Below are positions 1 through 56,467 of a stretch of DNA of 64,000 nucleotides, piece after piece. Each line of letters begins with the position of its first letter. Positions within the stretch are counted from its first letter, which is position 1. The notes below the pieces were generated by a model that was given only the letters and a program-made list of their open reading frames with translations, was not told the DNA's origin and searched no databases. The position numbers were made by a program, and so were the translations under genes. This DNA comes from Bacteroidales bacterium (GTDB lineage: Bacteria > Bacteroidota > Bacteroidia > Bacteroidales > UBA3663), in NCBI GenBank assembly GCA_045598885.1, contig JAZRVB010000162.1:2809-66808 (forward strand), given 5' to 3'.

Positions 1-431
1 TCAAGAATCCTAAGCAGTGTGCTACGGCCGACGGCGGCCGTGTAGGCCTCGACGGCACTTTTGTGTGCATGGGCAATCCGCACTTCGTACAGTTCGTCGA
101 GGACTCTTGTGCCATCGATCTGCCAGTCGACGGCAAGAAGCTGGAGTTCGATCCGATGTTCCCTGAGCGCTGCAACATTGAGTACGCTACCTTGCGTCAG
201 GATGGCAGCATCCGCATGAGAGTGTGGGAGCGTGGCAGTGGCATCACCTGGGCCTGCGGTACAGGCGCTTGTGCCACGGCTGTAGCAGCATGTCTCAATG
301 GCCTCACCGGTCGTGAGAGCGACATCGAGATGGATGGCGGCACGTTGCATATCGAGTGGCGCGAGAGTGATAATCATGTTTATATGACGGGACCTGCGGC
401 GATTGCGTTCGAAGGCACCATCGAAGAGTGA
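1..431 (+). CDS. dapF: diaminopimelate epimerase, C-terminal part (5' end lies outside the window)
   Basis: Frame 3 is open from base 3. The translation ...[13 protein letters not shown]...[22 protein letters not shown] carries the second catalytic-Cys motif typical of DapF. dapL lies next door. Confidence 0.9.
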
Positions 432-646
432 ACCTACGCCCAGACAGACCCTCCCCCGGCCCCTCCCTCGCTAAAGCTCGTCTTCTCGCTGAAGGCTTAT
501 CAAGCCTTCTTATCGCTGCGAGGACCACAAGGGAGGGGAGTGGTTAGAACTAGTATATAATTAGCAAATAGGATAACAAAAACCTCAACCCTCCGAGGTA
601 ATTACTCCCCTCCCTTGTGGAGGGGTAGGGGGAGGGTCTTCTTAAT

Positions 647-1894
647 ATGGTATACGTTAACGATAACTTCCTCAAACTTCCTTCCAGCTACCTCTTCTCC
701 ACCATCGCGCAGAAGGTAGCAGCATTCAAGGCCGCACATCCAGAGGCCAACGTCATCCGTCTCGGCATCGGCGACGTCACACAGCCATTGTGTCCAGCCG
801 TCATCGAGGCTCTGCACAAGGCGGTCGATGAGATGGCCAGCGGCGAGACCTTCCGTGGCTACGGTCCTGAGCATGGCTATTCGTTCCTGCAGGACGCCAT
901 CATCGCCAATGACTTCGCGCCACGTGGCATTACCCTCGAGCGTGACGAGGTCTTCATCAACGACGGTGCCAAGAGCGATACCGGCAACATCGGCGATATC
1001 CTCGGCCTCGAGAACACGCTCTGTATGACCGATCCGATCTATCCTGTCTACGTCGATAGCAACGCCATGTGTGGCCGCGCTGGTGACCTCATGGCCGACG
1101 GCAAGTGGACACGCATCGAGTACCTGCCATGCAACGCCGAGAATAACTTCATCCCAAGCCTTCCACAGGGCAACAAGGAGACCGGCGAGGCTCCATCGGT
1201 CATCTATCTCTGCTATCCAAACAATCCTACCGGCACCGTCATCACCCGCGAAGAGCTCAAGAAATGGGTCGACTACGCCCTCGCTCATGACTCATTGATC
1301 ATGTACGATGCCGCCTACGAGGCTTACATTCAGGAGGAGGACATCCCTCATTCTATCTACGAGATCGAAGGTGCTAAGAAGTGCGCTATCGAGTTCCACA
1401 GCTACTCTAAGACCGCTGGCTTCACCGGCGTCCGCTGCGGCTATACCATCGTCCCTAAGGAGGTCACAGCCGTCGCTAAGGATGGCAAGCGCGTCGCTCT
1501 CAATCCGCTCTGGAATCGTCGTCAGTGCACCAAGTTCAATGGCACCAGCTACATTCAGCATCGCGCCGCAGAGGCCATCTATACCCCAGAAGGCAAGCAG
1601 CAGGTCAAGGCGACCATCGACTACTATATGAACAACGCCAAGATCATGCGCGAGTCGCTCACCAAGCTCGGCTATGAGGTCTATGGTGGCGTCAATGCAC
1701 CTTACATCTGGCTTCGTTGTCCTAAGGGTATGACCTCGTGGGAGTTCTTCGACTACCTGCTCAACGGTCCACACATCGTCGGTACCCCAGGTGTCGGCTT
1801 CGGTCCTGCTGGCGAAGGCTACTTCCGCCTCACCGCTTTCGGCAACCGTGAGGATTGCGAGGAGGCTATGCAGCGACTCGCAGCGCTCAAATAA
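647..1894 (+). CDS. dapL: LL-diaminopimelate aminotransferase
   Basis: 415 aa. The N-terminus VNDNFLKLPSSYLF and the PLP-lysine block SYSKTAGFTGVRCGY match the DapL-type class I aminotransferase family. Adjacent to dapF. Confidence 0.9.
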   Translation: MVYVNDNFLKLPSSYLFSTIAQKVAAFKAAHPEANVIRLGIGDVTQPLCPAVIEALHKAVDEMASGETFRGYGPEHGYSFLQDAIIANDFAPRGITLERDEVFINDGAKSDTGNIGDILGLENTLCMTDPIYPVYVDSNAMCGRAGDLMADGKWTRIEYLPCNAENNFIPSLPQGNKETGEAPSVIYLCYPNNPTGTVITREELKKWVDYALAHDSLIMYDAAYEAYIQEEDIPHSIYEIEGAKKCAIEFHSYSKTAGFTGVRCGYTIVPKEVTAVAKDGKRVALNPLWNRRQCTKFNGTSYIQHRAAEAIYTPEGKQQVKATIDYYMNNAKIMRESLTKLGYEVYGGVNAPYIWLRCPKGMTSWEFFDYLLNGPHIVGTPGVGFGPAGEGYFRLTAFGNREDCEEAMQRLAALK

Positions 1895-55288: not shown

Positions 55289-56467
55289 GTGCGAGCGTTA
55301 ATCATAGGTCCCAAGTTCCATTACTTCAACCTGAGCGTTGAACGGGCTTTCCGTGCCCTTGGCTATGAGACGCTCATTCTGGCCTATGACAATCCGGTGC
55401 ATCCCTATACGCTCGATAATAAGATCCGTTATAAGTTTGCCGGCGATCAACTGGCCTTGAAGAAAGAGTCAAGAGCCCTGTTTCATCTGGAGGCCGAACT
55501 AGCCTTCGAAGAGTTCTTGCCCGATGTCGTCTTCGTCATGAATGGCGATATGCTGCTGTCCGATACGATCCTGCATTGGCGCGGACAACTTGAAGATGAT
55601 CCGGCTCCCGTGGAGAAACCTGCGAAGGTGGCCTTGTGGTTCTTCGATAGCATGACGCATATTCCTTTGTGCGAAGAGTGCATATCTGTCGTCGATGCCG
55701 TTTTCTGCTACGAACAGACAGATATTCCGATCATCAAGGAGAGATTTGGAGTCGATGCGCATTTCTTGCCTCAGGCGGTAGATACGGAGATCTACTATCC
55801 TATATCTTCTACCGAAGGAAAACTCCTCACTCCTCACTCTATCGAGCCCTCGGCTGAAGCCTCGTCTTCTCGCCAAGAGCATAAAAATGCTCTTTCTTCG
55901 GCTGCGAGGACCTCACTCCTCACTAAAAAATACGACATCGTCTTTGCCGGCGACATCTTCCATAGCCAGAAGCGCCGCCAGGTCATTCAAGCCGTCGTGG
56001 CTCATTATCCAAGCCTTCGAATAAAAGTCTGGGGCGAATACAAACCCTGGTATAAGAATCCATGGAAGTGGCTGACACGTGAGCGCAAGGATATCTATAT
56101 GAACCGCAACGCCAGCGGCAAGCAGCTCAATGAGGACTATAATCAGGCGCGTATCGTACTCAATATCCATCACGAGCAGCAGAAGGATGGCGCCAATCCC
56201 AAGGTTTACGAGATCGCTGCGACGTGCGCTTATCAGATCTGCGATGCCAACCCCTATATTGAGCAGCTTTTCCCAGACGGAGAGATCGGTCTCTACACCG
56301 TCGATCTGCAAGCAGGGGAGGAGCATCGTTACGACTCGCTCTTCGCATGCATCGACTACGCTCTGCAGCACGATATGACCGCTCAGGCAAAAGCGGCTTA
56401 TGAGAAGATTGTGACAAAACATACATTTATCCAACGCATCCAGCAATGTCTCGACACACTCGCATAA
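55289..56467 (+). CDS. CgeB/DUF3880-like glycosyltransferase family protein
   Basis: ALIIGPKFHYF..., YDIVFAGD and NPKVYEIAATCAYQICD resemble CgeB-type GT-B proteins. Probable GTG start at 55289. Contains a ~105-nt in-frame repeat insertion at 55821-55927. Confidence 0.65.
   Translation: MRALIIGPKFHYFNLSVERAFRALGYETLILAYDNPVHPYTLDNKIRYKFAGDQLALKKESRALFHLEAELAFEEFLPDVVFVMNGDMLLSDTILHWRGQLEDDPAPVEKPAKVALWFFDSMTHIPLCEECISVVDAVFCYEQTDIPIIKERFGVDAHFLPQAVDTEIYYPISSTEGKLLTPHSIEPSAEASSSRQEHKNALSSAARTSLLTKKYDIVFAGDIFHSQKRRQVIQAVVAHYPSLRIKVWGEYKPWYKNPWKWLTRERKDIYMNRNASGKQLNEDYNQARIVLNIHHEQQKDGANPKVYEIAATCAYQICDANPYIEQLFPDGEIGLYTVDLQAGEEHRYDSLFACIDYALQHDMTAQAKAAYEKIVTKHTFIQRIQQCLDTLA
55821..55927 (+). 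repeat. composite in-frame insertion: heptamer flanks plus a 64-bp palindromic core
   Basis: CTCCTCACTCCTCACTC (55824-55840), a core at 55847-55910 homologous to 467-524, then CCTCACTCCTCACT (55911-55924). Confidence 0.85.

Follow-up and report, generated by a model that had tools for sequence, protein, structure and literature searches.

The spacer between dapF (diaminopimelate epimerase) and dapL (LL-diaminopimelate aminotransferase) lies near the start of the window, that is, the whole stretch of 64,000 nucleotides analyzed here (contig JAZRVB010000162.1, positions 2,809 to 66,808 of the forward strand, assembly GCA_045598885.1). The genome (hereafter G000) is a 3.35-Mb, 235-contig MAG (82% complete, 48.5% GC) of an uncultured genus of gut Bacteroidales. 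The spacer is 215 nt long and is filled by a G/C-rich palindrome of roughly 200 nt, with two inverted 35-nt arms around an AT-rich center. The left arm is interrupted by a second hairpin of 58 nt, with CC on each side, whereas the right arm is contiguous (Table 1). As single-stranded DNA, the stretch 440–646 folds into one long branched hairpin at −56.6 kcal/mol, against −26.2 ± 3.4 for shuffled sequences (z = −9), with the 58-nt piece as a side branch between the outer and inner parts of the main stem. A preliminary description of the window, made from the sequence alone, had pointed to this composite palindrome and to a homologous piece inside a glycosyltransferase frame; everything that it described is present in the sequence. 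The homology between the two pieces extends further 5′ than it had noted and includes CCCTC(N)GCTAAAGC, a second small covarying hairpin.

Table 1. Coordinates in the window of the genes, arms, and hairpins discussed in the text
Position	Strand	Feature	Basis
3–431	+	3′ part of dapF, stop TGA 429–431	TIGR00652, 130 bits; in relatives the gene ends GAAGAATAA, here it ends GAAGAGTGA
432–446	+	ACCTACGCCCAGACA, outer extension of the inserted block	Absent from relatives' spacers (2–12 nt between stop and start); a non-orthologous composite at locus C237 of relative G017 has ...TAAACCTACA before GACCC
447–466	+	Left (upstream) arm, outer half, GACCCTCCCCC-GG-CCCCT(CC); 447–464 is GACCCTCCCCCGGCCCCT	Pairs with 619–639; belongs to the genome-wide 35-nt arm family
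446–466 / 619–639		Inverted repeat, outer	21 nt, 90% complementary
467–524	+	Nested 58-nt hairpin module, subfamily A, bracketed by CC (465–466 and 525–526)	Covariance model R1, 66.5 bits, E 3.6e-13 on 465–526; covariation; orthologous uninterrupted arm at another locus
470–471 / 476–477		Module, hairpin 1 (predicted)	
480–482 / 523–525; 485–487 / 520–522; 488–489 / 515–516		Module, closing stem (predicted)	
491–498 / 502–509		Module, hairpin 2 (predicted), inner stem GAAGGCTT/AAGCCTTC	Perfectly complementary
525–541	+	Left arm, inner half, CCACAAGGGAGGGGAGT	Exact complement of 604–620
525–546 / 599–620		Inverted repeat, inner	22 nt, 91% complementary
542–603	+	Copy-specific AT-rich center (34% GC)	No other copy of this center in the genome; C-rich motif at the gene-sense 3′ end typical of the family
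583–586 / 595–598		Small hairpin with a C-rich loop near the 3′ end of the center, CCTC-AACCCTCC-GAGG	
558–637		About 45 nt of the center's 3′ end plus the right arm	84% identical to an element just upstream of dapF in relative G007
604–638	+	Right (downstream) arm, uninterrupted, ACTCCCCTCCCTTGTGGAGGGG-TA-GGGGGAGGGTC	0 mismatches to the family consensus
639–646	+	TTCTTAAT, T-rich outer flank before the dapL start codon	Outer flank is T at +1 in 59 of 78 arms
647–1894	+	dapL	TIGR03542, 612 bits; start aligned with relatives
55847–55912	+	Second copy of the module (subfamily B), flanked by CTCACTC heptamers, in frame in a glycosyltransferase gene; shares the flanks TCGTCTTCTCGC and GCTGCGAGGACC, different but complementary stem AAGAGCAT/ATGCTCTT	R1, 84.1 bits

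The host palindrome belongs to a large family. The right arm, with a free dinucleotide NN between its two halves (ACTCCCCTCCCTTGTGGAGGGG-NN-GGGGGAGGGTC), recurs throughout the genome, with 66 full-length BLAST hits, 82 arms in a search for the inner half, and 67 matches to a 32-nt pattern with three or fewer mismatches (the reversed control pattern gives 0). The same pattern gives 38 matches in G017, 29 in G022, and 10 in G018, again with 0 for the reversed controls. Apart from the NN dinucleotide, which is not matched between the two arms of a pair, the arms are almost invariant, with a mean of 0.5 mismatch to the consensus. Each arm has an internal 7-bp hairpin (CCCCTCC-CTTGT-GGAGGGG). The 82 arms form 29 inverted pairs, all in the same tail-to-tail orientation (GACCC...GGGGAGT [center] ACTCCCC...GGGTC), and 24 singles. 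The centers are 51–148 nt long (one is 282 nt), AT-rich, and unrelated to one another by BLAST, with only short end motifs in common.

Nearly all arms are intergenic and copies fill very short gene junctions, with outer ends 0–15 nt from the neighboring reading frames. Of 23 scorable pairs, 17 leave 25 nt or less of other DNA in the spacer; by a crude open-frame gene call, spacers of 30 nt or less hold about 2% of intergenic bases and make up 29% of spacers. Single arms almost always lie with their GACCC end 0–6 nt behind a stop codon. The center is polar: read in the sense of the flanking genes, its 3′ part carries a small hairpin with a C-rich loop (for example, CCGC-ATCCTCCC-GCGG). The last 30 nt have more C than G in 20 of 22 co-directional cases (sign test, about 1e-4). 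The flanks of the 29 pairs show no direct repeat, and hence no target duplication, but simply continue the inverted symmetry, A-rich on the left and T-rich on the right. Arms also occur in frame inside genes, for example as a pair within a 1063-codon helicase-like frame (locus C51).

The whole 215-nt spacer is a recent gain. In the nearest relative, G018 (dapL 97% identical), the junction reads GAAGAATAAAATAATGG, a 4-nt spacer; in G022 it is 2 nt, and in G007, a further MAG, and G023 it is 7, 7, and 12 nt. Among 80 species examined, dapF lies directly upstream of dapL in 71, and most of those spacers are well under 100 nt. The inserted block includes the 15 nt before the left arm and a new stop codon. 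The composite at C237 of G017 has the same architecture, with a module nested in the left arm and the same outer flank (AACCTAC...ACA). The 15 nt therefore belong to a sub-lineage of the element, and, since at dapF–dapL itself all relatives lack the whole composite, the nesting there may have been inherited from a donor copy that was already composite.

The flanks of 12 other loci were searched in five relatives and the hits aligned. Whole elements or single arms present in G000 are absent from G018 and/or G022 at seven loci. At the rpmA junction, the center is a native, conserved, terminator-like hairpin, present without arms in G018 and G023; in G000, G022, and G007, it is bracketed by arms of three different sequence subfamilies. 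Arms can therefore be added separately on the stop-codon and start-codon sides, which explains the copy-specific centers and argues against a classical MITE. At locus C67, the G017 orthologue has a related center, but its arms come from another subfamily (GACCCACCCC...GGGGTGGGTC), and the two arms differ from those of G000 by paired changes that keep them complementary.

Uninterrupted arms are the norm (62 of 82 in G000). Eight arms carry a 58–69-nt hairpin module, of subfamily A at C162, C43, C120, and C27 and of subfamily C at C149, C152, C216, and C67. Six carry an unrelated 46-nt insert at the same place. All lie after CTTGTGG(AGG) and in one orientation. The decisive case is the glnB–amtB junction: G022 has no element, G018 has the same host as G000, with the same center and the arm CCCTTGTGGAGGGGCAGGGGGAGGGTC intact, and G000 reads CCCTTGT[GG]TCCTCGC...AGCGAG[GG]AGGGGCAGGGGGAGGGTC, that is, the 58/60-nt piece with GG (CC on the other strand) on both sides. 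Intact orthologous arms opposite interrupted ones are found also at C149 (intact in G018, subfamily C in G000), C216 (intact in G022, subfamily C in G000), and C70 (intact in G022, the 46-nt insert in G000). The junctions of subfamily C and of two A copies are not clean, with GAAT or AAATGG in place of AGGGG. The preliminary description had proposed a pre-existing palindromic element, a small piece inserted into one arm, and a structure-constrained, apparently mobile family, and these three proposals are supported by the comparisons. The 2-bp target duplication that it suggested fits the data, but every copy begins CC and ends CC, so that a duplication cannot be told apart from CC/GG belonging to the element. 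We looked for an unambiguous empty site in coding DNA, but the coding hosts are RHS-core paralogues that all carry the module and have no orthologue in G000.

The module is 58–67 nt long and has 14 copies in G000. A hand-made alignment of these copies gives a small hairpin (3 bp, loop TAAA), an invariant closing stem (GTC..CTC / GAG GAC), a 3-bp stem with one covarying pair, and a 7–8-bp central hairpin; 98.5% of cells pair, 10 of 20 pairs change on both sides, and none changes on one side only. A covariance model built from it (R1) found copies in 18 of 39 genomes of the genus. For 32 copies from 17 genomes, 98.2% of cells pair, 12 of 20 pairs have changes on both sides, there is one one-sided change, and 0 of 500 shuffles reach the observed score, whereas slid controls give 33–56% paired. 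That alignment was fitted to the model, which favors pairing, but the hand alignment and the raw sequences show the same result. At least ten central stems occur, AAGAGCAT, AGGAGATT, GGAAGGTT, GAAGGATT, GAAAGATT, GGAGGGTT, GAAGGGTT, GAAGATT, GAACGATT, and GAAGGCTT, each with its exact complement. With respect to transcription, the module lies in either orientation, sense at dapF–dapL and antisense at glnB–amtB; the constraint is therefore more likely on DNA, or on either strand, than on one RNA.

Copy number in the genus ranges from 0 to 62 per genome, with 14 in G000, 1 in G018, 15 in G017, 18 in G053, 39 in G042, 62 in G052, and 0 in 21 others; all genomes are incomplete MAGs (63–96% complete), and counts across related genomes are not independent. 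A search at the family level returned the same 39 genomes. Outside the genus, the module was not found in 149 genomes of 147 other genera of the order, nor the arm pattern in 397 genomes of 235 other genera; these are samples, and many are MAGs. In G042, G052, G014, G047, G053, and G005, the module sits in arms of other sequence families, again between the C-rich and G-rich strands of the arm's own hairpin, that is, at its loop, and in all 13 arm-borne copies inspected the orientation relative to the arm is the same. Copies of subfamily B are flanked by CTCACTC/CTAACTC heptamer arrays. The module lies in frame in RHS-core genes of at least seven species and occurs twice in one 48.6-kb IMG/VR viral contig.

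No enzyme could be linked to either family. G000 has a single Y1 transposase gene (151 aa; contig C148, L180:1486–1941), which scores as IS200 (NF033573, 86.7 bits) and falls below the cut-off for the REP-associated family REP_Tyr_transpos (30.6 against 80 bits). It is flanked by its own hairpin repeat (four copies, all on C148), which is unrelated to the arms and modules. Neither arms nor modules lie near it or near its homologues in seven relatives, whose flanking repeats are likewise only local. A search of G000 for an autonomous parent, with module ends separated by up to 6 kb, recognized no separated ends flanking a gene, but the short end patterns gave only coding-sequence noise.

The best explanation, in which we have good though not full confidence, is two layers of small, non-coding, apparently mobile DNA. 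In this view, the host entered what used to be a 2–12-nt junction, with a preference for very short gene junctions, without target duplication, and in one polarity relative to the flanking genes. The module sits in the left arm, at the loop side of the arm's own small hairpin (CCCCTCC-loop-GGAGGGG), with the host still able to fold. Family membership, the recent gain of the whole block, nested insertion at orthologous loci, site and orientation specificity, covariation, and patchy copy number rest directly on the comparisons. The single-stranded intermediate, the class of enzyme (an IS200/IS605-like Y1 transposase is the best guess), and any effect on dapF–dapL expression are inferences; for the last, an mRNA hairpin acting like REP/BIME or Correia elements is likely, because the junction was intracistronic. 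Both layers would probably move as single-stranded hairpin DNA, recognized by an enzyme encoded elsewhere and inserted at hairpin loops; the invariant stem of the module (GTCTTCTCG / CGAGGAC) would be the recognition site, while its freely covarying stems would matter only as structure. This mechanism, which we hold only tentatively, rests on the hairpin constraint, the site and orientation specificity, the lack of a clear duplication, and the analogy with IS200/IS605, REPINs (PMC3116915), and cyanobacterial SDRs. The unrelated centers of the host copies do not fit simple copy-and-paste of a whole element, and, as at rpmA, the unit that actually moves may be a single arm, with or without a short tail.

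A true REPIN–RAYT system, with the arms as REP sequences, the pairs as REPINs, and the module as a second REP-like client of a domesticated single-copy Y1 transposase, is unlikely. The arms are short, G/C-rich, imperfect palindromes, extragenic and mostly in inverted doublets, without target duplication, and a single-copy Y1 gene exists. Y1 hits above the cut-off occur in 7 of the 9 genomes with eight or more module copies, against 5 of the 21 with none, but the genomes are related and incomplete and this is only a lead. On the other hand, the Y1 gene is not flanked by arms or modules and scores as IS200. GTAG is not conserved, appearing only in arms whose variable dinucleotide happens to be TA. 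The spacers between arms are 51–148 nt and differ from copy to copy, and paired arms are not better conserved than singles (0.51 against 0.67 mismatches), whereas better conservation of paired arms is a hallmark of REPINs.

Equally unlikely is a cis-acting RNA or DNA signal kept by selection (an mRNA stabilizer, attenuator, terminator, or insulator, or a portable start-site context), with the module as a structured RNA domain. The polarity of the centers, the arms abutting stop and start codons, the strong covariation, and the paired changes at C67 would agree with it, and on the antisense strand 599–582 is a hairpin followed by a T run. A scan for sigma-70-type promoters and terminators gave one weak hit of each kind, both on the minus strand, which we do not treat as evidence. 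However, the module lies in either orientation relative to transcription and occurs also in frame inside genes and in a phage, its copy number varies from 0 to 62 among close relatives, and essential junctions such as dapF–dapL do without it in sister species. An Rfam search of 300–800 at permissive thresholds gave only sub-threshold chance hits (best whalefall-1, 18.6 bits against a gathering score of 37).

Spread of the module from arm to arm by gene conversion between the dispersed arms is more doubtful still. The arm-borne copies share place and orientation, the four C-type arms share the same imperfect junction (GGGAAnn), as if a whole composite arm had been copied, and the C237 composite shares an outer flank with the window copy. 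But the homology on either side of the insert is only 17–18 nt, and the module sits also in arms of unrelated sequence families (in G042, G052, G014, G047, and G053), in heptamer arrays, and in coding sequence where there is no arm homology. An invertible switch, although Bacteroidales are rich in invertible promoters and the architecture (inverted repeats around a short AT-rich segment next to gene starts) resembles one, is very improbable, since the center keeps its orientation relative to the genes in 20 of 22 assembled copies, many arms are single, some pairs lie in frame inside genes, and no Bacteroidetes-type promoter motif (TAnnTTTG) is evident in the center.

Among known repeats, the REP/BIME/REPIN elements of Proteobacteria (PMC3116915) are likewise short G/C-rich imperfect palindromes in extragenic, probably transcribed DNA, mostly inverted doublets forming long hairpins together with some singlets, without target duplication, and REPINs are reported to insert into or next to other REPINs. 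The present family differs, beyond the absence of a repeat-flanked RAYT gene and of GTAG, in its long and variable spacers (short and conserved in REPINs), its strong preference for stop/start junctions, the polarity of its center, and its lineage. The Correia/NEMIS elements of Neisseria and similar bacterial MITEs (reviewed in PMC3184786) are elements of 100–200 bp with terminal inverted repeats of about 26–35 bp, close to genes, co-transcribed as hairpins, in many copies, and variably present between strains. MITEs have a conserved interior and a target-site duplication (TA for Correia). Here, terminal inverted repeats are present, but the interiors are unrelated and no duplication is seen.

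The small dispersed repeats (SDR) of Nostoc punctiforme and other cyanobacteria (Elhai et al. 2008; named in PMC3116915) are reportedly tiny non-coding units of about 21–27 nt that insert at fixed points into one another and into heptamer tandem repeats, keep the hairpin potential of the host, and have no known enzyme. The module shares the clean insertion at a fixed point, with uninterrupted hosts available, and the association with heptamers; it is 58–67 nt long, with two covarying hairpins and an invariant closing stem, and comes from a different phylum. Rickettsia palindromic elements (RPE) likewise survive in frame inside protein genes as well as between genes, as do both the arms and the module, but this is a shared behavior only: sequences and lineage are unrelated, most copies here are intergenic and fill gene junctions, and nesting is the rule rather than the exception. 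The IS200/IS605-derived miniature elements (PATE-type), moved as single-stranded hairpins by Y1 transposases, share hairpin ends and orientation-specific insertion next to a short fixed sequence without an obvious duplication, and a Y1 gene is present in G000, but no IS with matching ends was recognized in G000, where the short end patterns gave only noise, and the Y1 gene shows no link with either family. Literature searches for such repeats in Prevotella or Bacteroidales returned nothing relevant. What is new here is the host family with its junction targeting and polarity, the three-state orthologous series, the three or more subfamilies of the module with full covariation, and the genus-wide copy numbers.

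A more far-reaching possibility, which we consider improbable, is that the genus harbors a hierarchical, structure-directed integration system of a kind not yet described. Very small hairpin modules (58–67 nt, 46 nt, and smaller) would be inserted by an unknown enzyme into the loop side of other hairpins in a fixed orientation, and their hosts, the 35-nt arms, would be placed specifically at stop-codon and start-codon junctions with a polarity that follows transcription. The enzyme would then read DNA or RNA shape plus a 7–9-nt invariant stem, and the arms would act as portable intercistronic signals rather than as junk.

How bacterial miniature repeats (REPs, SDRs, RPEs) move, and whether they do anything, is largely unknown outside Proteobacteria. 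Here, three successive states (empty junction, host element, and host plus nested module) are preserved at one orthologous locus in three sister species, and the module has ten or more compensated stem variants and an invariant stem that marks a likely recognition site. The spread of copy numbers among close relatives makes a comparative search for the responsible enzyme feasible once closed genomes exist. In practical terms, these repeats break MAG assemblies, since several arms lie at contig ends, and they add in-frame peptides to proteins. The targeting of junctions and the gene-sense polarity of the host also suggest an effect on operon expression in abundant gut Bacteroidales.

The junction upstream of dapF, just upstream of the window, holds another palindromic element that belongs to a different arm subfamily (GACCCTCTCC...GGAGAGGGTC). 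In this element, different small hairpins are nested at the position that corresponds to the free NN dinucleotide in the main family, and dapF appears to start at a later ATG than in the relative G007. Within the dapF-dapL element itself, the small hairpin of the centre is followed, on the antisense strand, by a T run and looks like an intrinsic terminator facing against the flanking genes. In the other copies, an A-rich stretch often precedes the hairpin in gene sense.

In the genome under study (G000), a third kind of nested insert (46 nt, ATTTCTGCCCCCGCTGTTCGGGGGATAGAGGGGGTGCGG..., with its own hairpin) occupies the same point of the arm in six copies, whereas the relative G022 has the intact arm at the locus on contig C70. 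At the junction after rpmA, a native, conserved, terminator-like hairpin is present without arms in the relatives G018 and G023. In G000, G022, and G007, on the other hand, that hairpin is bracketed by arms of three different subfamilies, which suggests independent or repeated arming of the same junction.

The elements are also found in frame within reading frames. Outside the window, a complete arm pair with a 282-nt centre lies in frame inside a 1063-codon helicase-like reading frame (…GPSPYPSTREGSG…TPLPCGGAGGGS…), and a possibly orthologous pair on contig C101 of the relative G017 additionally carries a nested A-type module in one arm. The module sits in frame (22 residues) in RHS/YD-repeat core genes, just before the conserved ...DYYD..AR.Y motif, and it occurs at the same site in at least seven species but with different compensated stems. 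Subfamily B modules are flanked by CTCACTC/CTAACTC heptamer arrays, which are scattered through the genome. The only IS200-type Y1 transposase gene of G000 is bracketed by repeats of about 140 nt containing CGTCTGGAAGACG hairpins, in direct and inverted orientation, and these repeats occur nowhere else in the assembly.

Locations of the additional elements, inserts, and flanking features (C, contig of the genome under study, G000, unless another genome is named; L, retrieved sequence stretch)
Feature	Location
Palindromic element upstream of dapF	L001:960-1132 (G000 C162:2268-2440)
Antisense terminator-like hairpin of the dapF-dapL centre	window 582-599, minus strand
46-nt nested insert, six copies	G000 C106:56289-56362, C106:73815-73888, C147:27761-27834, C201:7155-7228, C61:12810-12883, C70:1897-1970
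Junction after rpmA	G000 C152:18530-18809 and L034, L038, L044, L045
In-frame arm pair in helicase-like frame	G000 C51:21829-22180
In-frame module in RHS/YD-repeat core genes	L155:709-1938 and L153, L156, L158, L170, L171, L177, L178
Heptamer arrays flanking subfamily B modules	window 55827-55840 and 55913-55925; many other contigs
Y1 transposase gene with its bracketing repeats	L180:1186-2350 (G000 C148:14791-15955)
Y1 transposase gene	L180:1486-1941
Module copies in a viral contig (IMGVR_UViG_3300028454_000589)	L191:866-914 and L192:7487-7535
Unrelated palindromes in dapF-dapL spacers of other Bacteroidales	L074, L122, L142

One viral contig of 48.6 kb carries two module copies, one nested in a G/C-rich hairpin and the other next to CCCTTTT-type short repeats. 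This phage or prophage could be a vehicle between species. In addition, a few distant species of Bacteroidales have, in the same dapF-dapL junction, their own unrelated G/C-rich palindromes, and similar junction-filling repeats may therefore have arisen repeatedly.
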